From an uncultured Actinomycetota bacterium (lineage in GTDB: Bacteria; Actinomycetota; Actinomycetes; JAHEKZ01): a stretch of DNA of 64,000 bases. Positions 38,241-57,288 of this stretch are shown one piece after another. The stretch covers positions 1,248,001 through 1,312,000 of the forward strand of contig CAVQYR010000001.1 of NCBI GenBank assembly GCA_963718235.1, given 5' to 3'. Numbering within the stretch: the stretch's first letter is position 1; every line of letters begins with the position of its first letter. The position numbers were made by a program, and so were the translations under genes. The notes under the pieces are model-generated. The model searched no databases. It saw only the letters and a program-made list of their open reading frames with translations, and was not told the origin of the DNA.

Positions 38241-40044
38241 TCAGCGCACGGTGACCGACCGGGTCCAGCCCGACCACGAGCCGGCACCAACGCTGTTGAT
38301 GGCACGGATGCGGAACCGGTAGGACGAACCGACCTTGAGGTGGTCGAAGCGCAGCTGACGGACCGTCCCCTTCACGACTCGTTGCTGGCCCCTCGAGGTG
38401 ACGATGCTGTAGCGCAGCACTGGGGCGCCGTTCGGCGGTGCAGCCGTCCAGGTCAGTACGGCTGACTTCCTGGCTGGTTTGGCCGACAGGCGCTGGACCC
38501 GGCCCGGAGCCCCCGCGGGGCGCACGGTGTTGCTCGTGGTGGCCGGTCCGGTGCCCACGTCGTTGGTCGCCGCGACGGTGAAGCGGTAGCGGTGGCCGTT
38601 GCGCAGACCGGTGACGACCGTGCCACGTGCCTTGGCCCCCACGGTCTTGGTCTGCCCGCCCGGCAGCCTGGTCACCACGTAGGAGGTGATGGGTGAGCCG
38701 TTGGGCTTGCCCGCAGTCCAGGTCAGAGTCGCCCGGCCATTGCCCGCCTTGGCGGTGACGACCGACGGCGGTCGTGCGGAGCCTGCGGGCACGACCGCGC
38801 TCGTCGGGCTCGAGGGCGCGCCGGTTCCGGCGTCGCTCTGTGCCACCACCGCGAACGTGTAGGAGCGGCCGTTCGTCAGGCCGTTGACGGTGCAGCTCAA
38901 CGTCGAGGTGGTGCAGGTCCTTGCCCTCGGGAGTCGACGTCGCCACGTACTGCGTGATCGGGTCGCTGCCGGAACTGGTCGGGGCACTCCACTTCACCGT
39001 TGCCGAGGCGTCTCCCGGCACGGCCTAGCGCTTTGCGTGGTGCGCCAGGCGGAGTGGCGGCGATGTTGACGCTGTGCGGTGGCGCTGTCCTTGCTGCCGG
39101 CGTTGTCGGTCACAGTCAGGGTGACCTGGTAGGTGCCGGACGCTGCGTACACATGGGTCGGGCTGGCCGCGGTCGATGTGGCGCCGTCGCCGAACGCCCA
39201 CGCATACGACTCGATCGTGCCGTCGGGATCGCTGGAACCGCTCGAGTCGAAGGAGCACGACTTGTTCACGCAGGAGGACGTGAACGTCGCTGTCGGGGGC
39301 TGGTTGCCAGACGCACCTCGGTCGAGACACGGACGTAGTCGATGTCGCCGGAGAAGTAGTCGCAGGTGATGGTCACCTGGTCGCAGTTGTGCTTGCCGCC
39401 GATGGTGAACGGCTGCTTGTTGTTGATCGGACCTGTCGCGCCGTTCTTGATGGCCACCCGCACACCGTCGACATACTGCTTGACCTGGGTCGCCGTGTGC
39501 ACGCAGGTGACGGTGTGCCACTGCCCGTCGTTCAACGCAGCGGGGGAGCCGGTGCCGACCCGGGTGCCGTCGGCGCCCTTGAAGAGGCACTGGACGTTCC
39601 CTCCGGGACCCTGGACCTTGATCTGGCCGCCCTTGGTCGTGGACTGGCCCTTCTGCATGTAGTTGCCGAAGGGGCGGGTCGTGCGGAACCGGAACTCCAG
39701 GGTGTACGTGGCCGTTGGGGTCAGGGATGTCGAGCCGGATCGTCGTCTGGGACCTGGACGACCCTTGCCTCCTGGACGGGGAGGCAGGCCGGGCACCGCT
39801 CAGCCCAGCTGTAGTACGAGCCGTTGGACGTCAGACCGACCGACGCAGCGTCGGGGCTGATCTGGCCATTGATCCCGTTCCCACTCGAGTCGACCATCAC
39901 CGACGACCCGGCTGACTCGTCGAGCTGCCAGTCGGCGACCACTGCGGTCGCGGCCTGCGCGGGGGCGACCCACGGCGGCGCGGTCAGTCCCACCGCGGCA
40001 AGGGCGAGGACGGTGACCACGATCCCGACACGCTTCATCGACAC
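38241..40044 (-). CDS. Secreted LamG-like + PKD + 3x fibronectin type III protein with about 6 frameshifts (error or pseudogene)
   Basis: Signal peptide ...AQAA; WQLDE..DSSGNG; LNDGQWHTV...YVDG...FSGDIDYVR; NQPPTA...SSDPDGTI..YAWAFGDG; repeated GSPITSY/GLTNG.SYTF.V.A. Confidence 0.75.
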
Positions 40045-40325: not shown

Positions 40326-41201
40326 ATGCGCATGGGAGTGGTGATCCTTCCGGACAGCCGGTGGCCGGCAGCGCTGGACCGGTGGCGCGAAGCCGAGCGG
40401 TTCGGGTTCGCCACGGCATGGACCTACGACCACCTGTCGTGGCGGTCGTTGCGCGACGGACCCTGGCTGGGCACGGTCCCGCTGCTGGCCGCGGTCGCCA
40501 CCTCGACCACCACCCTGCGGTTCGGCACGCTGGTGGCCAGCCCGAACTTCCGTCACCCAGCGCCGCTGGCCAAGGACGTGATGACTCTCGACGAGATCAG
40601 TGGCGGGCGGCTGGAGCTGGGAGTCGGGGCAGGTGGTGGCGGCTTCGACTCGACGGTGCTCGGGCAGCCGCCGCTGACCGTCGCCCAGAAGGCTGCCCGG
40701 TTCGAGGAGTTCGTCGACGCGCTCGACGTACTTCTGCGCGAGCCAGCCTCTTCGTACTCCGGTGAGTTCTTCACGGTCGTGGAATCGCGGACATACCCGG
40801 GGTGCGCCCAGCGACCGCGGGTCCCTTTCACCGTGGCTGCGTCGGGACCGAGGTCGTTACGCGTGGCCGCTCGACATGGCCAGGGGTGGGTTACGGTCGG
40901 CGCATCCGGGAGCGGCGCGTCGTCGCAGGCATGGTTCGACGCCGTGACCCTCCAGGTCGCGAACCTGGCAGCAGCCTGTGAGCGAGAGGGACGAGACCCG
41001 GACTCGCTGCGCCGGGTCGCGCTGGTCAACCTCGAGGCCCAGTGGGCGCAGGGATCGGTCAGCGTGTGGGACGACTTCTGCGGGCGGGTGGAGGAGCTGG
41101 GCTTCACTGACGTTGTCGTGCACTGGCCACGACCGGAGGACCCGACGTGGCCGGGGCCGCCGATGAACGTGTTCGACGAGATCTGCAGCAGACTGCGCTG
41201 A
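40326..41201 (+). CDS. LLM class flavin-dependent oxidoreductase
   Basis: AWTYDHL, GTLVASPNFRHP, TLDEISGGRLELGVGAG; TAGCGT 6 nt before ATG. Confidence 0.88.
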   Translation: MRMGVVILPDSRWPAALDRWREAERFGFATAWTYDHLSWRSLRDGPWLGTVPLLAAVATSTTTLRFGTLVASPNFRHPAPLAKDVMTLDEISGGRLELGVGAGGGGFDSTVLGQPPLTVAQKAARFEEFVDALDVLLREPASSYSGEFFTVVESRTYPGCAQRPRVPFTVAASGPRSLRVAARHGQGWVTVGASGSGASSQAWFDAVTLQVANLAAACEREGRDPDSLRRVALVNLEAQWAQGSVSVWDDFCGRVEELGFTDVVVHWPRPEDPTWPGPPMNVFDEICSRLR

Positions 41202-43189: not shown

Positions 43190-43229
43190 GCTGACCAGTG
43201 AACACCCGTCGTCGACCTAGGGAGTGCCG

Positions 43230-43967
43230 ATGCCCGCCGAGACACGAGACCTGGCCGGAACCGTGGTGGCCATCACCGGGGCCACGGCCGGTATCGGCGC
43301 CGCCGCGGCACGCCTCCTGGTCGAGGCCGGTGCGAACGTGGCCCTCAACGGCCGTCGCCAGGACCGGTTGGACGCCTTGACGGCCGAGCTCGGTGCGGAC
43401 CGGGTCGTCTCGGTGCCCGGCGACGTCCGGACCCCGGAGGACCACGCTGCGCTGGTTCGCGCCGCACTGGACCGGTGGGGGCGACTCGACTCCGTCGTGC
43501 CGAACGCCGGGATCGGGATGTACGGGAGCATCCTGGACTACCCCGACGACGAGATCGCGCGCATGGTCGACACGAACTTCACCGGCACCGTGTGGTCGGT
43601 GCGGGCCGCGCTCCCGGCCATGCTGGAGACCACTGGTGGCGGCGACGTCGTCATCGTGGCCTCGGTGGCGGGGCTTCGCGGTGGCGGCGACGAGGCGGTG
43701 TACGCCGGCACGAAGTTCGCCCAGGTGGGCCTCGCCGGCGCGCTCGACCGTGAGCTTCGCGAGCGCGGCGTGCGCGTCTCGGCAATCTGCCCGGCCGGTG
43801 TCGAGACCGAGTTCGCCCTCGGTGCCGGCCGCACTGCCGGTGACCCCTCGATGGAGGCGTACCTGCGGCCGGAAGACGTCGCCCACGCGGTGGTCACCGT
43901 GCTGAAGCAGCCACGACGCGTGCGGACCACGCTGTGGGCCCTGTGGTCCATGGGACAGCAGTCCTGA
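43230..43967 (+). CDS. SDR family oxidoreductase (possible pentitol/sugar dehydrogenase)
   Basis: ITGATAGIG, PNAG, ASVAG, YAGTK; 15 nt upstream of xylB (alternative start 43224). Confidence 0.87.
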   Translation: MPAETRDLAGTVVAITGATAGIGAAAARLLVEAGANVALNGRRQDRLDALTAELGADRVVSVPGDVRTPEDHAALVRAALDRWGRLDSVVPNAGIGMYGSILDYPDDEIARMVDTNFTGTVWSVRAALPAMLETTGGGDVVIVASVAGLRGGGDEAVYAGTKFAQVGLAGALDRELRERGVRVSAICPAGVETEFALGAGRTAGDPSMEAYLRPEDVAHAVVTVLKQPRRVRTTLWALWSMGQQS

Positions 43968-43982
43968 CGGACGGGCCGAACC

Positions 43983-45497
43983 TTGAGTGCGAGCGCCGCA
44001 GTCGGACGCGAGTACGTCGTCGGGATCGACGTCTCGACGACGGCCACGAAGGCGGTGCTCGTCGACGAGACGGGTCGGGTCGCGGCGGTCGGGGTCAGCG
44101 AGTACGGCTTCGACACCCCGCGCCCCGGGTGGTCCGAGCAGGACCCGGCGCTGTGGTGGGCGGCCACGCGGCACGCGGTCGGGTCTGCCCTCGATGACGC
44201 CCAGGTCCCAGGGGATGCGGTACGGGCGGTCGGGCTGACCGGCCAGATGCACGGCTCGGTGCTGCTGGACAGCGCCGGCGAGGTCGTGCGTCCGGTGCTG
44301 CTGTGGAACGACCAACGAACTGCGGCGGAGTGCGACGAGATCCGCAGGCTCGTCGGAACCCAGCGGCTGGTCCAGCTGACCGGCAACGACGCGCTCACTG
44401 GTTTCACCGCCCCCAAGCTGCTGTGGGTCCGGCGGCACGAGCCGGGGGAGTGGTCGCGTGTGTCGCACGTCCTCCTGCCCAAGGACTTCGTTCGGCTCCG
44501 GCTCACGGGTGAGTACGCCACCGACGTCGCTGACGCGTCCGGAACCCTGCTCGTCGACGTGACGGCGCGCACCTGGTCGGCGGACGTGCTCTCGGCGTTG
44601 TCGCTCGATCCCGCGTTGCTTCCGAGCCTGTTCGAAGGCCCGGAGGTGACCGGGCTCATCACGGAGGACGCCGCCGCGGCCACGGGTCTGGCGGTCGGCA
44701 CACCAGTCGTGGCAGGAGGTGGCGACCAGGCCGCCAACGCAGTAGGGGTCGGTGCAGTGGCAGGTGGTATTGGCGCACTGTCACTCGGCACATCAGGGGT
44801 GGTGTTCGTCCCCACCGACCGGCCAGTGATCGAGCCTCACGGGCGCGTGCACTCCTTCTGCCACGCCGTGCCCGACACCTGGCACGTCATGGGAGTGATG
44901 CTGTCGGCAGCGGGTTCGCTGCGTTGGTACCGCGACACGGTGGCTCCCGGGGTCCAGTTCGGGTCGCTGGTCGACGAGGCGAGCGGCATCCCGCCGGGGG
45001 CCGAGGGTCTGTGGTTCCTTCCGTACCTGACCGGCGAGCGGACGCCGCACGCAGATCCCAACGCTCGCGGGGCGTTCATCGGACTGACGGTCCGGCACAC
45101 GCGCGCACACCTCACCCGGGCCGTCCTCGAGGGTGTTGCGTTCGGGCTGCGTGGTGGGCTCGAGCTGATGGTGTCGGCAGGCGTCGCGCGGCCTGAGGAG
45201 TTCCGGGCCTCCGGGGGTGGGACCAAGAGCCCGCTGTGGCGACAGATCGTGGCTGATGTGCTCGGGGTCCGGCTCAGCCTCACGCAGACAGCCGAGGGTG
45301 CGGCCTACGGCGCAGCCGTCCTGGCCGGGGTGGGTGCCGGTTGGGGTTCGAGCGTCCCGGAGCTGGCGGGAGCCTTCGTGCATGTCGAAGGCCCGGCGAC
45401 CGACCCGGTCTCCACGGGCGCGTACGAGGGACCGTACGCGTCGTTCCAAGGTCTGTACCCGGCGCTCGCGCCGACCTTCTCGGCGCTCGACGCCTGA
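43983..45497 (+). CDS. xylB: Xylulokinase
   Basis: GIDVSTT, GWSEQDP, GLTGQMHG, LWNDQR, GFTAPK, GGGDQAA, LPYLTGERTPH. Confidence 0.92.
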   Translation: MSASAAVGREYVVGIDVSTTATKAVLVDETGRVAAVGVSEYGFDTPRPGWSEQDPALWWAATRHAVGSALDDAQVPGDAVRAVGLTGQMHGSVLLDSAGEVVRPVLLWNDQRTAAECDEIRRLVGTQRLVQLTGNDALTGFTAPKLLWVRRHEPGEWSRVSHVLLPKDFVRLRLTGEYATDVADASGTLLVDVTARTWSADVLSALSLDPALLPSLFEGPEVTGLITEDAAAATGLAVGTPVVAGGGDQAANAVGVGAVAGGIGALSLGTSGVVFVPTDRPVIEPHGRVHSFCHAVPDTWHVMGVMLSAAGSLRWYRDTVAPGVQFGSLVDEASGIPPGAEGLWFLPYLTGERTPHADPNARGAFIGLTVRHTRAHLTRAVLEGVAFGLRGGLELMVSAGVARPEEFRASGGGTKSPLWRQIVADVLGVRLSLTQTAEGAAYGAAVLAGVGAGWGSSVPELAGAFVHVEGPATDPVSTGAYEGPYASFQGLYPALAPTFSALDA

Positions 45498-45525
45498 CGA
45501 GGCCCCGCCGCTCGCCTGACCCGGG

Positions 45526-47211
45526 TCACCCGGTGGAGGGTGTCCAGATCTCAGCGTCGGTCGCGCCGCGCGCGAGCAGGGCGAACTGGTTGGCATCCAC
45601 GGTCACCCACGGGCCGGTCTCTCCATCGGGCCACTCCACGCGCACGTCGACCTGGTCGGCGTCGCCCAGACCCAGATGGACCCACCCGAGCTGCCCACTC
45701 GCATGGCCGCCACCGATCGTCAGCTGGCGGCTGACCGTGCCGGCGTCGGTGCGCATCTCGAGCCATGCGCCGACCGCATCGCGGTTGCTGCCGGGCTGGT
45801 GCAGTCGCAGCGCAGCCCAGTTCCCCATGGGCTCGGGGTTGGCCTTGTCCCCGGAGCCCACGTTGCGCCACAACCGCACGTTCTCGCCACGGTTGACCTC
45901 GACGAGGTCGAGCATCCCGTCGAGGTTGAAGTCGGCCAGGGCCGCCCCTCGGCCTCGCCCGAAGCTCACGATCCCGGCCTCCCTGGCGCTCTCGGTGAAG
46001 GTGCCATCGGTGTTGCCCAGGAGCAGGTTGCTCGGATCCTCGGCAGCGTGGTCGGCCTGGGCATCGACGTTGCCCTTGGAGATGAACAGGTCGATGACCC
46101 CGTCGTTGTTCACGTCGGCGAACTCCGGGTGCCAAGCGGTCGAGGGGAGGAGAGGGTCGCCCATGAAGGGTCGGTGCGCGGTCACGCCGCGGCGGATGGC
46201 GATGTCCCCGTACGTCGGCCGCTCCGGACCGTCGGTGAGGGTCTGCAGTCTGTTGTCGCCCTGGCTGGTGATGAAGACCTCCGGGAGGCCGTCTCCGGTC
46301 ACGTCGTAGGTGGCGATGCCCATGCCCCAGATCTGCAGCGGCTGCCAGCCCTCCTCGAGGGTGTAGGGGCGCGGCGCCTCACCGCCGTCGACCCGCCACA
46401 GCTGCTCCTGTCCATCGGTGTAGTAATGGCGGTCGTTGGCCATCCGCAGGTCGTGCCGGCCAGTGTGGTTCCAGTCGGCGAAGAGGATCGACAGCGTGCA
46501 CAGCCCCGGTGCCAGCGTGATCGGTGGTCGGTAGCCAGCCCCGTCCGCGGCCGGTCGGTACATCGCACTGTCCGTGCAGCCGCGGGCGTTCTGCTTGTCC
46601 GCCTTCACGTCGAGGTAGTTGCCGAAGGCGAGAGTCGGTAGCGCGGTCGGGTCCTCCCAGGTGGCCGAGAACGCGTCCGTCCAGGCCTTGCCGCCGTCGA
46701 AGGCCCACGTCTCGTTGGCCCGCTCGAACCGACAGCCGCCCAGCCCTCGCAGCAGCACGTTCTCGCCGACCCGCAGCACGGCCAGGTCGAGGTTCCCGTC
46801 GGCGTCGATGTCGATCGGGTACGCGCCGGTGACCTCGGTGAGGTCGGTTGCGGCGTCGGGCACCTCGCTGAACCTGAGCTCGCCGCCGACCGAGCTGTCG
46901 TTGTGGAACAGGGCGGCGGGCTCCTCGCCACCCGCCAGGTAGAGGTCCGGGCGACCGTCGTCGTCGCAGTCGAACGTGGCGACCCCTCCACCGACGTAGA
47001 ACCTGAAGTCGCCGTCGTACACGTGCCGGATGCCAGAGGCGCTGGTCTCCTCGACGAAGCGAGGGGGACTGGCCGCTGACGGCTCCTCGGCGGCAAGGGG
47101 GCCGACCGCCACGACGAAAGCGGCGGCGCCGGCGAGGCAGCCGGCGAGGATCCCGCCCAGGAACCATCGGACACCCCCTGCCCGGCGCGAGACCGGCGGC
47201 AGCTCGCTCAT
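45526..47211 (-). CDS. CRTAC1-family FG-GAP/VCBS beta-propeller + ASPIC/UnbV protein, N-terminal TM or signal
   Basis: Repeated DxDxDGxxD motifs (DCDDDGRPD, DIDADGNLD, DVNNDGVID, DFNLDGMLD); NRDAVGA...GGGHASGQ...HLGLG; ATGA overlap. Confidence 0.88.
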   Translation of the reverse strand: MSELPPVSRRAGGVRWFLGGILAGCLAGAAAFVVAVGPLAAEEPSAASPPRFVEETSASGIRHVYDGDFRFYVGGGVATFDCDDDGRPDLYLAGGEEPAALFHNDSSVGGELRFSEVPDAATDLTEVTGAYPIDIDADGNLDLAVLRVGENVLLRGLGGCRFERANETWAFDGGKAWTDAFSATWEDPTALPTLAFGNYLDVKADKQNARGCTDSAMYRPAADGAGYRPPITLAPGLCTLSILFADWNHTGRHDLRMANDRHYYTDGQEQLWRVDGGEAPRPYTLEEGWQPLQIWGMGIATYDVTGDGLPEVFITSQGDNRLQTLTDGPERPTYGDIAIRRGVTAHRPFMGDPLLPSTAWHPEFADVNNDGVIDLFISKGNVDAQADHAAEDPSNLLLGNTDGTFTESAREAGIVSFGRGRGAALADFNLDGMLDLVEVNRGENVRLWRNVGSGDKANPEPMGNWAALRLHQPGSNRDAVGAWLEMRTDAGTVSRQLTIGGGHASGQLGWVHLGLGDADQVDVRVEWPDGETGPWVTVDANQFALLARGATDAEIWTPSTG

Positions 47212-49073
47212 CTGGACTCCCCGAAGTACGTCTGGGCCTTGGCCCAGGCAGCCTTCCCGCACGCGCTGCCGATGGCCCGACCCTCGAGGTCGTCGGCCCG
47301 CACGTGAATACCGCCGTAGAGCCGGGAGATGCCTGCCTGGTCCGACGCGTCTGCGTAGGTCGCCGACTGGAGCACGACGTCCTTGGTCGGCCCAGCCTCG
47401 AACTCCAGCGATCCGGCGGGAATGGTCCAGCTGAAGAGTCCGCCCGGGAAGTACTCGCTGCCGGTCATCGCGGTCAGCACCTCTGCGGCAGCCCGGCTGA
47501 ACGTGCTGTGTCCGGACACGTAGGCCGCGAACGCCGGGGTCACGAAGGTGTCCCGCTGGTAGGGCACCCAGTCAACCGCTCGGATCCAGTCGACCCCGCC
47601 GGTCTGGGTCTCCGGGTCGTCCGGAGTGCCGGTCCACGAGCGCACCGCGATCTCGCCCTCGTGGCCGGCCAGCTCCTCGTGCCGGTGCCCGGGCCGGGTC
47701 GTCCTCGACGTGACCAGCTCGACCAGCCCCGGCACGAGCGGAAGACCCTCGCGGTCGTAGGAGGGAAGGCTCGGGTCGCTCGACTGACCCAACCCACCCA
47801 GGTAGCGGATCATCGAGATCGGACGGGACGTGTCGTAGAAGCCCTTTACCCCCCAGGCGGCGACGGCCGCGTCGTGCGTCGCGCCGTTGAGCGCGAAGTA
47901 GAGCTCCACGTCCCACTGCAGGCGATCGACCGTCGGTCCTGAACCACCGATCCGCAGCTCAGGGGCGAGCTGGTCGGACACGGCGTTGGCGATGGTGTTC
48001 CAGTGGCCGGGTGGTGTCTCGGACTTCGGGCCGTCGGCCCAGAACTCGGCGACCGCACGTCCGAAGTCGGCCTGGTTCACCGGGTTGGGCGGGTAGGGCT
48101 CCCCGGTCACCGGGTTCAGCGGATGCCCAGTTCCGTCGTACGTACCCAGAGGGTTGGCGCCGAGTGAACCGGGTGACGCGTCGACCACGACCCCTTGGTT
48201 CGGGTCGAGCTCGCTGCTGAGCCGGATCACCTCGACGGCGGCCTCCTTGAACGCGCCGTCACTGCTCGGGTCCTCCAAGCGAGGCGGCGGTCCGGGGTCG
48301 ATCGGGAGGCCCTCGTCGCCGCCGTCCGGAAGGGCGAAGCCGGTGACGCGACCCCACTGGGTGCCGATGGCCTTCTGGACGTTGTCCTCGGCAGGGATCC
48401 CGTTCTGTGAGGTCAGCTGCTCGATCTGGAGCGGCTGCCAACGGTTGGGGTCGGTCATCGTCGTCCCGGGCTTGGCCACGACGAGGGGCGGGTTGACGGG
48501 GACGTAGTCCGGATTGGTGTATCGGCCGGCCTCGTTGGAGCCGTCGTCGACTCCGGACGCGAGCACCGCGGCGGCGATCCGGTTGCCGAGTGCGGCCGGG
48601 CTGTCCCCCTCCGTGGTGTCCACGTCGGTCGAGTAGCACATCGACGTCATCAGGGCATCGAAGGCCGGGATCGAGTCCGACGCGCCGACCGCACCCAGGT
48701 AGCGGGACTCGAGCACGCGGTACGCGGCATAGCTGATCGCCTCGTCTCGGGCGGCAGCCACGTCGGCGGCATCGTGCTTCTCGTCCAGGAAGTAGCCGCG
48801 TGCCTGGGGGTCGTAGGCGGCCCAGGCGTCCCACATCGCCGCCGAGACGTGGAAGAGGTTGCGGGCGTGGACCGGCGGGTTCGGGATGTCACGGCGGATC
48901 GCGTCCAACGTGGCCTCGTCCCACGCACGGGCCACCGACCACTCCGGGTGGCTCGCCGCGCAGTCCGGCTCCTCAGATGCGTCTCGGGCCAGGGAGAGCC
49001 CGCCGAACGCGAACGCAAACCCGAGGACGGCACCGAGGACCGAAGCCGCACCGCGCTTGGCGCCGTTGCTCAC
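47208..49073 (-). CDS. Secreted vanadium-dependent haloperoxidase-like (PAP2 superfamily) protein
   Basis: K-x6-RP (KGFYDTSRP), YVSGHST, SRLYGGIH; SVARAWDE..LDAIRRD.P.P..HARNLFH; FWADGP.SETPPGHW; hydrophobic N-terminus. Confidence 0.85.
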   Translation of the reverse strand: MSNGAKRGAASVLGAVLGFAFAFGGLSLARDASEEPDCAASHPEWSVARAWDEATLDAIRRDIPNPPVHARNLFHVSAAMWDAWAAYDPQARGYFLDEKHDAADVAAARDEAISYAAYRVLESRYLGAVGASDSIPAFDALMTSMCYSTDVDTTEGDSPAALGNRIAAAVLASGVDDGSNEAGRYTNPDYVPVNPPLVVAKPGTTMTDPNRWQPLQIEQLTSQNGIPAEDNVQKAIGTQWGRVTGFALPDGGDEGLPIDPGPPPRLEDPSSDGAFKEAAVEVIRLSSELDPNQGVVVDASPGSLGANPLGTYDGTGHPLNPVTGEPYPPNPVNQADFGRAVAEFWADGPKSETPPGHWNTIANAVSDQLAPELRIGGSGPTVDRLQWDVELYFALNGATHDAAVAAWGVKGFYDTSRPISMIRYLGGLGQSSDPSLPSYDREGLPLVPGLVELVTSRTTRPGHRHEELAGHEGEIAVRSWTGTPDDPETQTGGVDWIRAVDWVPYQRDTFVTPAFAAYVSGHSTFSRAAAEVLTAMTGSEYFPGGLFSWTIPAGSLEFEAGPTKDVVLQSATYADASDQAGISRLYGGIHVRADDLEGRAIGSACGKAAWAKAQTYFGESR

Positions 49074-49323
49074 GCTGACCTTCCGAGACCTGTTCGGAGA
49101 CCCTGTCCGACGGACATGATTCTGTCTCATCGGAGGGACGGTCGAGCCCCTCGGCGGCGGACCGGCGCACCCACCACGTCGCGGGCGCGCTCAGGGTGAC
49201 CCCAACGAAACCATTCCGTTACGCGAAGGGGACGTTTGGCCCGAGTTGCAAGGGGGGTCCTCGTCGCTAGGGTGAGGGCGTTGATCAACTGTGGTCACCA
49301 GACTCGGAAATGGAGGAGCAGCC

Positions 49324-50460
49324 TTGTCGAAGCTTCGATACTTCGTGCTGCTACCCGTTGCTGCGCTCGCGCTTGCCGCCTGCAGCAGCGACGACGGCGG
49401 AGGCGGCGGTGATACGACTGCGGCGGCAGAAGGAATCACGGTCGGGGTCTCCTGGAACAACTTCAACGAACCACGCTGGGCCAAGGCCGACGAGCCGGCC
49501 ATGCAGGAGAAGCTGACCGAGCTCGGTGCCGAGTACATCTCGACCGACGCCGGATCGTCAGCGGACCAGCAGCTCACCGACGTCGAGAACCTGATCACCC
49601 AGGGTGCTGACGTGCTGATCATCCTGGCCCAGGACGGCACGGCGATCCTGCCGGCGGTTCAGAGCGCGACCGACCAGGGGATCCCGGTGATCAGCTACGA
49701 CCGGCTCATCGAGGATCCCAACTCCTTCTACCTGACGTTCGACAACGTCGAGGTCGGTCGGATGCAGGCCCAGGCCATCTACGACCTGGTCCCCAAGGGC
49801 AACTACGTGTTCATCAAGGGCAACGCGGCTGACGCCAACGCAGACTTCCTGCGCGGCGGGCAGGAGGAGGTCCTGACCAAGGCGACCGGGTGCAAGGAGC
49901 TCAAGCCGCCGTGCGACATCGTCAACGTCGGCGAGTCCTACACGGACAACTGGGAACCGGCGGTCGCCCAGACGAACATGGAGCAGTTCCTGACCAAGAA
50001 CAACAACAACGTCGACGCAGTGGTGGCCTCGAACGACGGCATGGCCGGCGGCGTGGTGGCAGCACTGGAGGCCCAGGGCCTCGCCGGTGACGTTCCGGTG
50101 TCTGGCCAGGACGGTGACGCTCCGGCACTCAACCGGGTCGCGCTCGGCACCCAGGCGGTCGACGTCTGGAAGAACGCCTTCGAGCTCGGCAAGGCGGCAG
50201 CGGAGATCGCCGTCCAGCTGGCTGACGGCACCGCGCTCGCGGACGTCTCGATCACCAGCGACCTGGGTGACACCGCCCCGGCCGCAGGTCCTGACGCCCA
50301 GCCGTTCACCACTCCAGAAGGCAACGAGGTCTCGTCGCTCATCCTGACCCCGATCCCGATCACCCAGGACAACCTCAACGTCCCGGTCGATGCGGGTTGG
50401 ATCACCCAGGAGGAGCTCTGCCAGGGCGTCAAGGCCGGCTCTGTGGCGGCCTGCCCGTAG
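49324..50460 (+). CDS. xylF: D-xylose-type ABC substrate-binding lipoprotein
   Basis: Lipobox LAAC, GVSWNNF.E.RW, ISYDRLI, FDNVEVG, NDGMAGG, SGQDGD; GGAGGAG SD. Confidence 0.85.
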
Positions 50461-50490: not shown

Positions 50491-50534
50491 TCTGTGCGGT
50501 GCTGGCGGACCAGGGTTCGCCAGCACCGCACAGA
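50491..50534 (+). other. 20-bp stem-loop after the binding-protein gene (mRNA stabiliser or attenuator)
   Basis: TCTGTGCGGTGCTGGCGGAC-cagg-GTTCGCCAGCACCGCACAGA. Confidence 0.75.
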
Positions 50535-50555
50535 ACCACGAACGGAGGGTGCTCC

Positions 50556-51873
50556 TTGAGCGACGCGTCTACAGTTGCGGCTCCGGTTGAGCAGGGCGAG
50601 CCCAGCAAGCGCAGGGGCGCCTCCGCAGTGCTGCGCTCGATGGAGCTGGACCCCCGGCTGTTCGGGATGCTCATCGCGCTGGCGGTCATCTGGATCGTGT
50701 TCGACATCTGGTCCGGCGGCACGTTCCTGTCGCCACGGAACCTGTGGAACCTGTCGGTGCAGACCGCCGTCGTCGGAATCATGACGACCGGAATGGTGCT
50801 GGTCATCGTCACCCGCAACATCGACCTGTCGATCGGCTCGATGCTGGCCGTGATCGGCATGTTCATGGGGCTCCTGCAGGCCGAGTGGCTGCCCAAGTGG
50901 ATCGGGTTCGACCACCCCTTCACCTGGTTGATCTCCTTGGCCGCGGGGATCGCGCTCGGGGCGGCGATCGGGGCCTTCCAGGGGTCGCTCGTCGCCTATG
51001 CAGGCGTGCCGGCCTTCATCGTCACGCTGGGCGGGCTGCTGGTCTGGCGTGGTGTGGCCTGGTGGATGGCCTCGGGCCGGACGATCGCGCCGATGGACAC
51101 CAACTTCCAGCTCCTCGGCGGTGGCTCCAAGGGCACCATCGGCGGCACCTGGACCTGGATCATCGCGGTGGTCGCCTGTCTGGGCATCGTGCTGTTCCTC
51201 GTGAGCAGTCGACGACGACGCAAGAAGTTCGGGTTCACCCTGCGCCCCGTGTGGGCCGACGTCACCATCGCCATCGTGGGGTGCGTGGCGGTGATCGTCT
51301 CCGCGTGGGTGATCAACTCCTACCCCATGCCGCCGGCACTGGCCCGCCAGTACGCCGAGGACAACGGGATCGCCTGGCCAGAGGGTGGCCTGGAGATCCC
51401 CCTCGGTCTGGCCAACCCGGTGCTGATCTTGATCGTGGTCGGGCCTGGTGATGACCTTCGTCGCCACCCGGCTGAGCTTCGGGCGCTACGTGTTCGCCAT
51501 CGGTGGCAACCCGGAGGCCGCCGAGCTGAGCGGGATCAAGACCCGCTGGACGATCGTGCGGGTGTTCATGGTGATGGGCATCCTGGTCGCCATCGCCGCA
51601 GCCGTGTCGACCGCCCGGCTCAACGCCGCCACGAGCGGCCTCGGGCAGCTGGCCGAGCTGTACGTCATCGCGGCCGCGGTCATCGGCGGTACCTCCCTGG
51701 CCGGGGGCATCGGCACCATCCCTGGCGCCATGCTCGGCGCCCTGGTCGCGCAGTCGCTGCAGTCGGGCATGGTGCTGATCGGGGTCGACGCGCCGGTCCA
51801 GGACATCGTCGTCGGTGTCGTGCTGGTGTTCGCGGTGGCTCTTGACTCCCTCTACCGACGGAGGTTGACATGA
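50556..51873 (+). CDS. xylH: Xylose ABC permease, frameshift near 51442
   Basis: [70 protein letters not shown]. Confidence 0.85.
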
Positions 51874-52668
51874 CGGCAGAGTTGGCTGCTGAGCCTATCC
51901 AGCCCCTAGTGGAGATGCGTGACATCCGGGTGGCGTTCGGTGGGGTCCACGCCGTCGACGGCGTCACCGTCGACCTGTTCCCGGGCGAGGTGGTCGCGCT
52001 GGTCGGCGGCAACGGCGCCGGCAAGACCACGCTGATCAAGACCCTGTCCGGGGCGCACAAGGCCGACTCCGGCCAGATCATCGTCAACGGGGAAGAGGTG
52101 ACCATCAACAACCCCCGCGACGCCCAGCTGCTGGGTGTCGAGACGATCTACCAGACCCTCGCCCTTGCCGACAACATCGACGCCCCGTCGAACATCTTCC
52201 TCGGCCGCGAGGTGCGCACCCGGTGGCGGACCCTGGACGACACGGCCATGGAGGACGCCAGCCGCAAGCTGATGGGGCGGCTCAACCCCGGTTCCGCAAC
52301 TTCACCGCCCCGGTGAGCTCACTGTCGGGTGGACAGCGGCAGTCGGTGGCGATCGCCCGGGCCGTTCACTTCAACGCCCGCATCCTGATCATGGACGAGC
52401 CCACCGCCGCCCTCGGCCCGGCTGAGACCGAGCAGGTGCGCGACCTGATCCGTCAGCTGAAGAAGGAAGGCATCGGGATCTTCCTGATCAGCCACGACAT
52501 CCACGACGTGTTCGACCTGTCCGACCGGATCAGCGTGATGCTGCAGGGCAAGCTCGTCGGCACCGTCAACAAGTCCGACGTCACCAGGACGAGGTGCTGG
52601 CGATGATCATCGCCGGCAAGAAGCCCGGCGAAGTGACTGCCAAGGACATCGAGCAGCTGCACCTCTAG
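51870..52668 (+). CDS. xylG: Sugar ABC ATPase (single domain), frameshifts near 52288 and 52586
   Basis: [35 protein letters not shown]; tail [11 protein letters not shown]...HL*. Confidence 0.82.
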
Positions 52669-52707: not shown

Positions 52708-54036
52708 CTACTGCGTCTTCCACAGCGTCCGGTTGACCAGGTTCTCGAGCTGCTCCTGACGCCCGCTCACCGGTGATGGGTCGATACCGCCTTCGGCCAC
52801 TCGCTTCTCCAGGTCGGCCAGGGACAGTCCACCTGCCAAGATCTCCAACCCCAGGCGCTGCGACCACCCGGCGTACCTCGCGTCACGTGCAGCTTCGATG
52901 TACCCGTCCTCGACCATCCTGGCCGCCACCAGCAGCGACAGGGCGAGGACGTCCATGCCTCCGATGTGCCCGTGGAACAGGTCGTCGCGCGCCAGGCTCT
53001 GGCGTCGGAGCTTGGAGTCGAAGTTCATGCCACCGGTGGTGAAGCCTCCGCCGCGCAGGATCTCGTACAACGCCAGGCTCATCTCCTCGATGGAGTTGGG
53101 GAACTGGTCGGTGTCCCAGCCGTTCTGCGGGTCGCCACGGTTGGCGTCGATGCTGCCGAAGACCCCGTTGTCGACGGCGTACGCGACCTCGTGGTGGAAG
53201 CTGTGCCCGGCGAGGGTCGCGTGGTTCACCTCGATGTTCACGAAGTACTCACCGAGCAGGCCGTACCGCTCGAGGAAGCCGTGGACGGTGGCACAGTCGT
53301 AGTCGTACTGGTGCTTGGTCGGCTCCTGCGGCTTGGGCTCGATGAGCAGGGTCCCTTCGAACCCGATCGAGTGCTTGTACTCGGCCACGAGGTGCAGGAA
53401 CCGCGCGAGCTGGTCGGCCTCCTGCTTCATCCGGGTGTTGAGGAGGGTCTCGTAGCCCTCGCGCCCGCCCCAGAGCACGTAGTTGGCGCCACCCAGCCGG
53501 TGCGTCGCATCGAGCGCGTTCTTCACCTGCGCGGCCGCGTAGGCGAAGGCCTCCGGGTTGGGATTGGTGGCCGCACCCGCTGCGAACCTCGGGTGGCTGA
53601 ACGCGTTGCTGGTGCCCCAGAGCAGTCGGACCCCGGTGCGCACCATCTGCTCCCCGGCATAGTCGACCATCTCCTCGAGGTTGCGTCGGCTCTGGGCGAA
53701 GTCGTCGCCGGCCGGGGCCATGTCGATGTCGTGGAAGGTGAAGAAGGGAACCCCCAGCTTGGCGAAGAGCTCGAACGCGGCATCCATCTTCTGACGCGCG
53801 GCTGCCATGGGGTCGGACGCCGGCTGCAACCACGGCCGGTCGAAGGTGCCCGATCCGAACACGTCGCTGCCCGGCCAGTTGAACGAGTGCCAGTAGCACA
53901 CGGCCATCCGCAGGTGCTCGTCCATGCGCTTGCCGAGCACGAGCCGCTCGGGGTTGTAGTACCGGAAGGCGAGGTCGTTCTCGGTGTCTGGGCCCTCGAA
54001 GGCGATCGGGCTGACGTCGGCGAAGAACTCGGGCAC
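52708..54036 (-). CDS. xylA: Xylose isomerase, class II (442 aa)
   Basis: N-terminal FEGP...LAFRYY extension, [49 protein letters not shown]. Confidence 0.96.
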
Positions 54037-54059: not shown

Positions 54060-55028
54060 CTACGACCCCAGTATCTCGTCTATCACCCTCATGTTCGCCA
54101 TCGCGTCGGAAACGGGCACGGGGACGTCGGTGTCGTCCAGGATCGCCCGGCTGAACAGCTCGGCCTGGAGGGTGTACTGGTTGGCCGGAGGGAAGGTCAG
54201 GCTCTCCGCGTCCGCGCCGTCGACCGTGAGGTGGATCCGCGTCTCGCGGTCCCAGGGGATGTTGAAGGGGATCTCGACCTCGATCCGCCCTCGCGTCCCC
54301 ACGATGTTCACCCGCTGGTAGGGCTCACACCGGATGCAGACGGTGAAGGTCGACTGGCCACCGTCGGGGAAGGCGAGGACGGCAGAGGTCGTGGTGTCGA
54401 TCCCCATGACCGGGTCACGTCGGACCTGGGCGGCGACCGCCGTGGGTTCCGCCAGGAAGAGCATCCGGGACAGGTTGATCGGGTAGCAGCCGATGTCCAT
54501 CAGGGCGCCACCGCCGTGGCCGACCTGGTTGCGGATGTTGGCCGGGTCGTCGTTGTAGTAGCTGAACCAGGTCTGGACCCCCTGCAGGCGACCGATCGCG
54601 CCGGTCCGGACGAGCCTGGTGGCCTCGACCCAGGTGGGGTGGTGGCGGTACATGAACGCCTCCTGGAGCTTGACGCCGGCCTGAGCACAGGCGTGCGCCA
54701 TCTCCTGGGCCTGCGCTGCGCTCAGGGCGAGCGGCTTCTCACACAGGACGTGTTTGCCCGCCTGTGCCGCCTTGAGGGTCCACTCCGCGTGCTGGTCGTT
54801 GGGCAGCGGGACGTACACGGCGTCGACATCCTCGGCCGCGAGCAGGGCCTCGTAGCTCTGGTAGGCGGCAGGGATGCCCAGCCGTGCGGCTGCAGCCTCG
54901 CTGCGGCTCGCGTCGCGAGAGGCGATGGCCACCACCTCGCACCCCTGCGCGCGCTGGATCGCGGGGGTCACCTCGACCATGCCGATGTCTGCGGTGCTGA
55001 GGACTCCCCATCGAACGGTGCTCACCAC
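54060..55028 (-). CDS. Gfo/Idh/MocA oxidoreductase (possible aldose dehydrogenase)
   Basis: [39 protein letters not shown]. Confidence 0.88.
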
Positions 55029-55605: not shown

Positions 55606-55740
55606 CTCTGCTCGACGGGTTGCCGACCCTAGCGACGCCCCTGAGGCTTGTCAGTCGAAGGCCAGAAGTTCACGCCGAAGGACGATCAGACGGCATCCTG
55701 TGACCGGCAGTACGCGCAGCTTGCGGAAGGTGGGGCGAAG

Positions 55741-57288
55741 GTGGATGGCGCAGTGGCGAGCCCGCATCGTCTGGCGACGGCAGCGGGTGAGCAGGTGCTC
55801 GCGGAGGGCGGGTCCGCGGTGGACGCTGCCATCGCGACAGCGGCTGTGCTTGCCGTGGTGGCGCCTCATCAGTGCGGGATCGGTGGTGATGCGGTTGCGC
55901 TGGTTGCCGAGCCCGGTGCGGACATCGCCTGCTACCAGGGGGCCGGTCGGTCGGCGGCTGCGGTCGACGTCGACGCCGTGCGGCAGCTCGGGCACGGCCC
56001 GATGCCGGTGTTCGGTCCACACTCGGTCACTGTTCCCGGGGCGGTCTCCGCGTGGGCCGCGATGCATGCCGACGCGGGCCGGCTGCCCTGGTCCGGGTTG
56101 TTCGACGACGCGACCACGTTGGCCGCGGACGGCTTCGGCGTCGGCCGCGGGCTGAGCGAGGCGATCGCCGACAGCTCGGGCCGGGTCCGTGTGGATCCTG
56201 GCCTGCATGCTCTCCTGACCCTGGACGACAAGCCTCTGACGCTCGGTGACCACCTGCAGCAGCCGGCGCTCGCGCAGACCCTCACCGCACTGGCCTCCGC
56301 CGGACCGGATGCGCTGTACCGGGGGCCGGTCGGAGCGTCACTGGTGGAGCATCTGCGGTCCCTCGGGTCGTCGTTGTCCGTCGAAGACCTCACCGGTCAC
56401 CTGTGCGAGCGCCCCGAACCGATCGAGTCAGCGTGGAGGGGCGCCAGGCTGTGGACTGCTCCACCCCCGTCGCAAGGGGTGGTCCTGTTCCACATCCTCG
56501 CCCTCCTGGACGAACTCGGTGGCTCGAACGACCTGCTCGGGTCAGACGCCGACCTGTTGGCCGGGGTGTTCGCGGCGTCGACCACGTTCCGGGAGGAGCG
56601 GCTGGCCGACCCGCGGGCGTCGCCGGTCGACGTCTCCCACGGGGTGCACCCGGACGACATCGCGAGGACCGCGGGTCAGATCAGGGAGGGGGCACGACCG
56701 GCGGCCGCGCCCTCGCCCTCGCCCCGGCGTCCCGACGGCGACACCGTGGCCGTCGTGGCTGCGGACGCCGAAGGAGGCTTCGTCTCCCTCATCTTCAGCC
56801 TCTTCTACTCGTTCGGTTCAGGGATCTGCGACCCCTCCACCGGAGTGGTCCTGCACAACCGAGGGGCCGGGTTCACCCTGGACGCCGGGTCGCCGAACTG
56901 CCTGGCGCCGAGCCGTCGCCCGGCCCACAGCCTGATGCCGTTGCTGCTGGCCGACGACGAGGGCGTGTTCGCCGCGCACGGCACGATGGGGGGCTACGGC
57001 CAGCCGCAGATCCACGCCCAGCTGCTGCTGCGCCTGGATGCGGGGCAGACGCCCACCGAGGCGGTGACCGCCCCCCGATGGGTGGTCGGGCGCCCAGACG
57101 ACGACGGCGGCCTCCAGATCGAGGTCGAGCGCTCCGCGCCGGGCGTGGTCCAGGACTCACTGGGCAGAGCCGGGCTTCCCGTCCAGCTGCTGGCCGACCT
57201 GGACAGCGAGGTTGGTCACGCCCAGCTGGTGCGTCGCGATGCCTCGGGCGCGCTGCTGGTCGCGACGGACCCACGCGCCGAAGGCTGA
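55741..57288 (+). CDS. Gamma-glutamyltransferase family Ntn hydrolase, cytoplasmic type
   Basis: GGSAVDAAIA, GIGGD, VTVPG, PPPSQG, GD|T nucleophile, HNRG, RPAHSL, GTMGG.GQPQ, DPRAEG. Confidence 0.88.
   Translation: MDGAVASPHRLATAAGEQVLAEGGSAVDAAIATAAVLAVVAPHQCGIGGDAVALVAEPGADIACYQGAGRSAAAVDVDAVRQLGHGPMPVFGPHSVTVPGAVSAWAAMHADAGRLPWSGLFDDATTLAADGFGVGRGLSEAIADSSGRVRVDPGLHALLTLDDKPLTLGDHLQQPALAQTLTALASAGPDALYRGPVGASLVEHLRSLGSSLSVEDLTGHLCERPEPIESAWRGARLWTAPPPSQGVVLFHILALLDELGGSNDLLGSDADLLAGVFAASTTFREERLADPRASPVDVSHGVHPDDIARTAGQIREGARPAAAPSPSPRRPDGDTVAVVAADAEGGFVSLIFSLFYSFGSGICDPSTGVVLHNRGAGFTLDAGSPNCLAPSRRPAHSLMPLLLADDEGVFAAHGTMGGYGQPQIHAQLLLRLDAGQTPTEAVTAPRWVVGRPDDDGGLQIEVERSAPGVVQDSLGRAGLPVQLLADLDSEVGHAQLVRRDASGALLVATDPRAEG

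Follow-up and report, generated by a model that had tools for sequence, protein, structure and literature searches.

Vanadium-dependent haloperoxidases of the NapH type sit in natural-product clusters. The vertebrate protein CRTAC1 has an EGF-type domain; to our knowledge, neither it nor any other protein of the CRTAC1 family has been assigned a function. In the MauG/pre-methylamine dehydrogenase and MbnH/MbnP pairs, a di-heme enzyme oxidizes a partner protein, and in fungi a scheme of pyranose oxidase, peroxidase, and aldos-2-ulose dehydratase couples sugar oxidation to peroxide-using enzymes. In this study, we analyzed a 64,000-nucleotide stretch of DNA from an uncultured Actinomycetota bacterium (contig CAVQYR010000001.1, positions 1,248,001 to 1,312,000; hereafter the window), in which a gene for a vanadium haloperoxidase (VHPO)-like protein and a gene for a CRTAC1-like propeller lie side by side within a xylose cluster. 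Our best reading is that this pair locally represents a widespread accessory module of XylFHG-type sugar uptake, one that is extracytoplasmic and redox-dependent. In related loci, the VHPO-like partner is replaced by two other redox-type proteins. We consider it quite likely that the propeller has functional ties with XylFHG as well as with the VHPO-like partner.

Both genes of the pair are on the reverse strand, between xylB and xylFHG. The VHPO-like gene is placed at 47208..49073 (−) when read from a GTG codon at 49073 (621 amino acids); the longest reading of the open reading frame (ORF) starts at ATG 49130 (47208..49130 (−), 640 amino acids). The nearest homologs are approximately 621 amino acids long, which supports the GTG start favored by an earlier reading made from the letters of the window without database searches (hereafter the sequence-only reading). 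The propeller gene follows at 45526..47211 (−; 561 amino acids; full ORF 45526..47262) and encodes a CRTAC1-like, calcium-type FG-GAP propeller with a C-terminal UnbV_ASPIC domain. The two genes share ATGA at 47208..47211 (−), where the stop codon of the first runs into the ATG of the second, an arrangement of translational coupling. The ORF reading thus bears out the description of two ATGA-coupled genes between xylB and xylFHG. Scanning 45300-49450 for promoters and terminators gave no promoter-like sites, and two terminator-like ones where 1.1 would be expected. No NCBIfam model was matched by either protein.

Hydrophobic segments are present at both N-termini. In the VHPO-like protein, the segment covers residues ~28-48 of the 640-residue reading (48987..49049 (−)) and could serve as a signal peptide or signal anchor; orthologs have an equivalent hydrophobic N-terminus, and Cys57, just past the segment, is invariant in 21/21 rows. 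In the AlphaFold2 (AF2) model of the propeller, an N-terminal helix, either membrane anchor or signal, is predicted at residues 10-36 (47104..47184 (−)). These signals indicate that both proteins are exported, possibly staying membrane-anchored. The hydrophobic termini thus uphold the claim of export in the sequence-only reading, whereas its word "secreted" may instead mean anchored on the outer face of the membrane.

The VHPO-like protein matched the Pfam families DUF6851 (61.5 bits) and VCPO_2nd (34.1 bits), both above the cut-off of 27. All five of its significant matches among Protein Data Bank (PDB) sequences were vanadium-dependent haloperoxidases, including 9ptr (E 1e-16), 9l8x (E 1.1e-14), NapH3 (E 8.7e-10), and NapH1. 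The three PAP2/vanadate motifs noticed at first reading were all confirmed, with their key residues invariant in 31/31 full-length orthologs from related loci (residue numbers follow the 640-residue reading). In site motif I (K429 ... R436 P437; KGFYDTSRP, residues 429-437; 47820..47846 (−)), K429, R436, and P437 are invariant; in motif II (V538 S539 G540 H541; VSGH; 47508..47519 (−)), S539, G540, and H541 are invariant, as are R603, H609, and D613 in motif III (S602 R603 ... H609 ... D613; SRLYGGIH, residues 602-609; 47292..47327 (−)). Such invariance reflects conservation, not chance. We take K429, R436, S539-G540-H541, R603, and H609 to be equivalent to the vanadate-site residues of the fungal enzyme. 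The AF2 model of this protein (mean pLDDT 54.6, pTM 0.35) was too poor for use or for a fold search.

The propeller matched FG-GAP_3 (84.7 bits) and UnbV_ASPIC (44.4 bits), the latter over residues 479-542 (45586..45777 (−)), and contains four DxDxDGxxD calcium-type loops, at residues 81, 134, 366, and 427. Mouse CRTAC1 (9etn) was its top match by sequence (E 5e-11) and also ranked first in a fold search with the AF2 model (E 2.8e-20, TM 0.64/0.65, 18% identity), a model of moderate confidence (pLDDT 72.8, pTM 0.78). The assignment as a calcium-type FG-GAP propeller with an ASPIC/UnbV domain is therefore confirmed by family models, motifs, and fold. The second fold match was fungal aldos-2-ulose dehydratase, a sugar-acting enzyme (E 7.4e-8, TM 0.48, 12% identity), and lower matches included integrins, other propellers, and lectins. 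A total of 107 positions, many of them Trp, Tyr, and His, are kept between the propellers of Rhodobacterales and those of the clade of metagenome-assembled genomes (MAGs) described below; several conserved motifs fall within the loops worst modeled by AF2. The conserved positions and loop motifs, together with the glycoside-hydrolase loci of distant relatives, fit a carbohydrate-directed enzyme or specific binder. A complex prediction of propeller residues 48-458 with residues 60-640 of the VHPO-like protein scored 0.00 and was not used either way.

Homologs of the propeller are abundant: of 8,000 candidates scored, 7,964 reached significance, with at least 63% identity for the top 120. For a census of loci, an alignment of 30 propeller homologs was searched against species-representative genomes and gave at least 597 related stretches, of which the best 80 (56-66% identity) were kept. 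The census was anchored on the propeller, the genes of each locus were called from our own ORFs and by similarity, and the taxonomic labels of the MAGs may be wrong. The 80 loci come mostly from MAGs labeled Acidimicrobiia, other Actinomycetota, or Chloroflexota, with a few from Acidobacteriota or other phyla (at least four phylum labels). A XylF-type gene (40% identity or more) was found within the fetched flank of 69/80 loci. Of the 65 loci whose upstream flank reaches at least 4 kb, 63 have it beside the propeller (all but L015 and L029), and it is present in 73 of the 76 scorable rows. Enrichment of close propeller homologs near xylose genes had been set beforehand as a check on the sequence-only reading, and these counts speak for it. 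The xylF gene is directly divergent from the propeller gene or is separated from it by a VHPO-like gene or by ROK, GFO/IDH/MocA (GFO), and short-chain dehydrogenase (SDR) genes; L052 and L057 have it on the downstream side of the propeller gene. Genes for xylA (29/80), xylB (33/80), and a ROK regulator (36/80) also recur.

A VHPO-like gene adjoins the propeller in 35/80 loci, co-directional and just upstream in 27 and divergent in 8. Clustering of all ORFs of the loci revealed two further conserved neighbors. The first is a cytoplasmic M24-like protein of ~458 amino acids that carries a Creatinase_N domain and matches prolidase weakly (e.g., L011:11611-12987 (+)); its gene is directly downstream of the propeller gene, often overlapping it, in 59/81 scorable rows. 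The second is a polytopic RnfD/NqrB-like membrane protein of ~525 amino acids with a borderline match to NQR2_RnfD_RnfE (e.g., L017:6621-8198 (−)), labeled RnfD-family in the ESM Atlas. The RnfD-like gene is present in 35/65 scorable rows, mostly from Acidimicrobiia, and adjoins the propeller gene in the fully flanked, xylF-less loci L015 and L029 and in the short-flanked L049. The coupling of propeller and peroxidase partner proposed at first reading thus stands in part: the adjacency of the VHPO-like gene is real, but the gene is optional, and neither an RnfD-like third partner nor the very frequent M24-like neighbor had been foreseen. The propeller tree places the window protein next to that of a Jiangellales MAG as its sister, within a clade of 22 rows, 19 of them from Chloroflexota; this nesting among Chloroflexota suggests that the module moves between phyla.

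The three redox partners were never seen together: of 53 rows flanked by at least 6 kb on each side, the VHPO-like gene is the sole partner in 22 (the window included), the RnfD-like gene in 23, and a di-heme gene in 4, so that 49 rows have exactly one partner, four have none, and none has two. On the propeller tree, the VHPO state requires 12 changes and the RnfD state 6, and close relatives may have different partners (L058 versus L063, L069 versus L079).

Natural fusions join the same proteins. In a search for longer propeller relatives, 23 of the 120 listed clusters combine VHPO and propeller in one chain (DUF6851/VCPO_2nd with FG-GAP_3/UnbV_ASPIC; 41-59% identity to the window propeller). 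The order in three VHPO fusions that were checked is signal peptide, propeller, and then VHPO, and two that were read in sequence have a Pro/Ala-rich linker in place of the VHPO anchor. This order and linker indicate that the fusions are not a read-through of the usual gene order, VHPO and then propeller. A fourth fusion cluster has the reverse order. In P0180, a more distant propeller (31% identity) is joined via two membrane helices to a CCP_MauG di-heme domain. An RnfD-like protein fused to the propeller (P0123) and a propeller fused to the M24-like protein (P0124) are single sequences, and P0124, possibly a read-through, was given little weight; the model of an Atlas cluster of 918-residue ASPIC/UnbV proteins (148 members) matches the RnfD-like membrane part with a TM of 0.55.

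The di-heme partner was found in Rhodobacterales. In a plasmid collection, the propeller occurs at 46-51% identity on Rhodobacterales plasmids, and 59 of the 77 matching records are from Phaeobacter. Five plasmids were examined, from Phaeobacter gallaeciensis, P. inhibens, Roseinatronobacter, strain SC52, and Ruegeria sp. TM1040. In 4/5, xylFHG is beside a ROK-CRTAC1 pair, with the ROK gene divergent from xylF and its end overlapping the CRTAC1 gene, and in 4/5, a MauG-like di-heme gene adjoins the propeller gene. The plasmids of P. gallaeciensis, P. inhibens, and Roseinatronobacter carry a "cytochrome c peroxidase" gene just behind the CRTAC1 gene and convergent with it. In strain SC52, CRTAC1 and the peroxidase are present and xylFHG is missing; the peroxidase is missing from Ruegeria sp. 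TM1040, which carries xylFHG and ROK-CRTAC1. All four peroxidases are orthologs of one another (54-62% identity), and each of the three that were translated has two CxxCH motifs. Their best NCBIfam model was TIGR03981 (251 bits), followed by MbnH and MauG, all below cut-offs; among PDB sequences, the best match was the di-heme enzyme 6e1c, and canonical cytochrome c peroxidases scored above MauG. No di-heme peroxidase gene was present in the window or in any of the 80 MAG loci. A roseobacter xyl locus carrying a CRTAC1-like gene and a MauG-like di-heme peroxidase, to which the sequence-only reading had pointed, was thus found in Phaeobacter and Roseinatronobacter. Its proposal that a single propeller clade is linked with two unrelated types of peroxidase also holds, as both links are backed by adjacency and by natural fusions. 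Its description of the module as pentose-linked fares less well: the linkage to xylFHG is strong, but the pentose is not secure, because xylFHG of P. inhibens is reported to be required for the use of glucose and sucrose (PMC4436071), so that the importer may carry more than xylose.

More distant pairings were seen on other plasmids. Among VHPO-like genes carried on plasmids, the nearest (42% identity; L086, Chondrinema litorale plasmid NZ_CP111045.1, 6932-10537) encodes a type IX secretion system (T9SS) sorting domain and is convergent with genes for a kelch-repeat propeller and a LacI regulator, which makes another haloperoxidase-like/propeller pairing. Distant CRTAC1-family genes (26-28% identity) lie beside genes for a TonB-dependent receptor, GH30, and GH28 on a Granulicella tundricola plasmid (L087) and in a glycosyl hydrolase locus on a plasmid of the haloarchaeon Natronosalvus amylolyticus (L088).

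Within the window, the xylose-type surroundings of the pair were confirmed by family models of xylA, xylB, and xylF, and the pair does share a spacer with the divergent xylFHG. An SDR gene (43224..43967 (+); homologs at 35% identity or more in 25/80 loci) precedes xylB, a xylulokinase gene (43983..45497 (+); TIGR01312, 569.9 bits, cut-off 380) that is convergent with the propeller gene. On the other side of the pair, the divergent spacer (49074..49323) separates it from xylF, which encodes a XylF-type sugar-binding lipoprotein (49291..50460 (+); TIGR02634, 365.1 bits, just below the cut-off of 389.6). The xylF product has a lipoprotein-type signal; its gene probably starts at TTG 49324, and with this start, the spacer is ~250 bp long. 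The permease gene xylH (50499..51867 (+)) contains one frameshift near 51434-51445, and the ATPase gene xylG (51870..52662 (+)) contains two, near 52283-52289 and 52585-52588. These sites are near short runs of G or C, and the remaining cluster genes (xylF, xylA, xylB, and the pair) are intact; the frameshifts may be errors of long-read assembly or reflect genuine decay of the importer. The xylose isomerase gene xylA (52708..54036 (−); 696.6 bits) has upstream of it a GFO oxidoreductase gene (54060..55028 (−)), with homologs at 45% identity or more in 39/80 loci; the best NCBIfam name for the homolog in L023 (59% identical) was D-xylose 1-dehydrogenase Gfo6, with a score under the cut-off. A ROK gene was not found within the window.

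The spacer contains a perfect 10-bp palindrome (49280-49289), 35 bp upstream of the likely xylF start, and no equivalent was found across the related loci. By eye, the regions upstream of xylF showed only hairpin-like repeats. In L022, L025, L059, L065, L067, L068, and L075, the stretch from a TATAGT-like box to the ribosome-binding site of xylF holds an inverted repeat, rich in GC and variable in its loop, that looks more like a 5′-leader hairpin than an operator of fixed spacing. Other genes in the window, untied to the module, encode a PKD-domain protein (38994-39590 (−)), an F420-type luciferase-like oxidoreductase (40326-41201 (+)), and a gamma-glutamyltranspeptidase (55648-57288 (+)).

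In the mechanism that we propose, the constant core would be the CRTAC1-like calcium propeller, paired with one of three interchangeable redox partners: the VHPO-like protein (the window and many Chloroflexota and Actinomycetota), the MauG-like di-heme protein (Rhodobacterales), or the RnfD/NqrB-like protein (mostly Acidimicrobiia). The propeller would bind and oxidize, or oxidatively process, a sugar or sugar-derived substrate at the cell surface. Electrons passed to oxygen would yield peroxide, which the neighboring or fused peroxidase would consume or clear; in loci with an RnfD-like conduit, electrons would go to the membrane, and the peroxidase would be dispensable. The product or freed sugar would then enter by XylFHG and be handled in the cytoplasm by the GFO and SDR oxidoreductases, XylA, and XylB, with the M24-like protein in most relatives. 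Linkage, fusions, conservation of the site, and export signals are observations, and we infer every chemical step, including the substrate. This redox reading would account for both the exclusivity of the partners and the presence of two kinds of peroxidase. The mechanism as stated, namely oxidation by the propeller with delivery of peroxide to a peroxidase or of electrons to an RnfD-like conduit, is put forward tentatively, as a possibility that falls somewhat short of probable.

Several observations weigh against the redox-module reading. The 80 loci are the top-ranked of at least 597 and form a non-random sample, and 45/80 lack a VHPO-like gene. In the 64-kb window, the M24-like gene is absent, and xylH and xylG are frameshifted. 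A search for a common operator upstream of xylF found none, with no palindrome recurring in more than 5 of the 74 upstream regions. The exclusivity of VHPO-like and RnfD-like partners is confounded by relatedness: only 5-7 independent contrasts are available (none in the same direction, approximately three in the opposite one), and the formal test is therefore not significant (sign test, p 0.25). No redox cofactor or non-calcium metal site is recognizable in the propeller, and none is named by any family model. In addition, a haloperoxidase makes hypohalous acid from peroxide, which is a poor route of detoxification, and the MauG/MbnH-like NCBIfam scores of the Rhodobacterales partner suit a role in maturation at least equally well.

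Maturation would mean that the peroxidase partner uses peroxide to install a cross-link or an oxidized-residue cofactor in the propeller, which would itself be the working enzyme or binder. MauG and MbnH oxidize tryptophans of their partner proteins, and the propeller has invariant Trp, Tyr, His, and Cys residues. The Rhodobacterales partner scored best against MauG-like families (TIGR03981, MbnH, and MauG, all below cut-off) and has the di-heme enzyme 6e1c as its best PDB match, and partner and propeller do occur side by side and fused. However, maturation leaves unexplained why an RnfD-like membrane protein stands in the place of the peroxidase, four fully flanked loci have no partner at all, a permanent fusion would be costly for one-time processing, and we know of no VHPO that modifies a protein. 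We give this explanation a minor but real chance. A propeller without redox activity is unlikely: here it would be a lectin-like binder or a glycan-cleaving enzyme of a new kind, releasing sugar for XylF, while the VHPO-like enzyme separately makes hypohalous acid against lignin, humic matter, or competitors, the two being co-located through growth on plant debris. The glycoside-hydrolase loci of the distant CRTAC1-family genes in Granulicella and Natronosalvus and the lectins and integrin-type binders among the fold matches are consistent with such a role. Against it, the propeller is fused to three different redox-type proteins, and 49/53 fully flanked loci have exactly one partner type, both patterns being unexpected for independent functions that are merely co-regulated.

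The VHPO-like protein could in practice be a PAP2-type phosphatase acting on extracellular sugar phosphates or other esters, with the propeller helping to bind them. Its PAP2 pattern (K-x6-RP, SGH, SR-x5-H-x3-D) is complete and invariant, including the final Asp, D613, and sequence alone cannot separate haloperoxidase from phosphatase activity because the vanadate-site residues also define PAP2 phosphatases. Nevertheless, every significant PDB match was a vanadium haloperoxidase, the architecture is DUF6851 with VCPO_2nd, and a heme peroxidase holds the equivalent place in Rhodobacterales, so that the shared feature appears to be peroxide chemistry rather than phosphate; a phosphatase is thus decidedly improbable. 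Finally, inherited synteny or hitch-hiking without any functional link might be suspected, as many of the 80 loci are from related MAGs and labels cluster on the tree. This we regard as hardly credible, since the linkage persists through altered gene order and orientation and across phylum labels, is accompanied by natural fusions, and recurs in Rhodobacterales at 46-51% identity.

The redox-module reading matters beyond this locus, as the propeller clade is very common and adjoins a core sugar importer in soil and water Actinomycetota, Chloroflexota, and marine Rhodobacterales. Three unrelated redox partners, all of which also occur in fusion with the propeller, suggest a common cell-surface chemistry, which current models of xylose or glucose uptake leave out. 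P. inhibens and Ruegeria sp. TM1040, both genetically tractable, carry the module. A further-reaching and rather unlikely proposal is that CRTAC1-like propellers are a new class of surface sugar-oxidizing or oxidatively glycan-processing enzymes that pass electrons either to oxygen, with a dedicated VHPO-like or MauG-like peroxidase dealing with the peroxide, or to an RnfD-like membrane conduit. If true, a haloperoxidase fold would have been recruited into primary sugar acquisition, and the first biochemical lead to the function of vertebrate CRTAC1 would be at hand. The sequence-only reading had called the module undescribed; in agreement, our literature search found no description of a VHPO-CRTAC1 pair, a CRTAC1-xylFHG link, or DUF6851 ("DUF6851" occurred in 0 papers).

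The locus resembles a canonical xylose locus (xylA, xylB, xylFGH, and a regulator) in that the pair is surrounded by xylA, xylB, and xylFHG, but it adds two exported proteins and the GFO and SDR oxidoreductases, with no ROK gene found. A CRTAC1-family FG-GAP gene has been described between non-anammox homologs of hydrazine synthase subunits, one of them di-heme (gamma-like), among propeller proteins and with ABC substrate-binding genes nearby (PMC12758564); those loci involve other partner proteins and lineages, with no xyl link and no function assigned. The likeness to the MauG/pre-methylamine dehydrogenase and MbnH/MbnP systems lies in the MauG-like di-heme genes beside or fused to CRTAC1-like propellers; the window, by contrast, has a VHPO-like enzyme and no di-heme gene, and the family scores of the di-heme proteins are all below cut-offs. 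Similarly, the second fold match of the propeller recalls the aldos-2-ulose dehydratase of the fungal scheme, but it is a generic propeller match at 12% identity, and the window locus has no flavin oxidase. With vertebrate CRTAC1 (mouse 9etn), the propeller shares the FG-GAP calcium fold and ASPIC/UnbV domain at 18% identity in the fold alignment, whereas the bacterial protein is without an EGF-type domain by Pfam and is tied to XylFHG and redox partners. The bacterial vanadium-dependent haloperoxidases (9ptr/9pts, 9l8x, NapH3 8cxl, NapH1 3w35, and the Zobellia enzyme 4cit) have the same DUF6851 and VCPO_2nd architecture and complete vanadate-site residues. The window protein differs from them in its N-terminal anchor or signal, in its coupling or fusion to a CRTAC1-like propeller, and in its place in a sugar-uptake locus, and the module would thereby extend the roles of vanadium-haloperoxidase-like enzymes past halogenated natural products.

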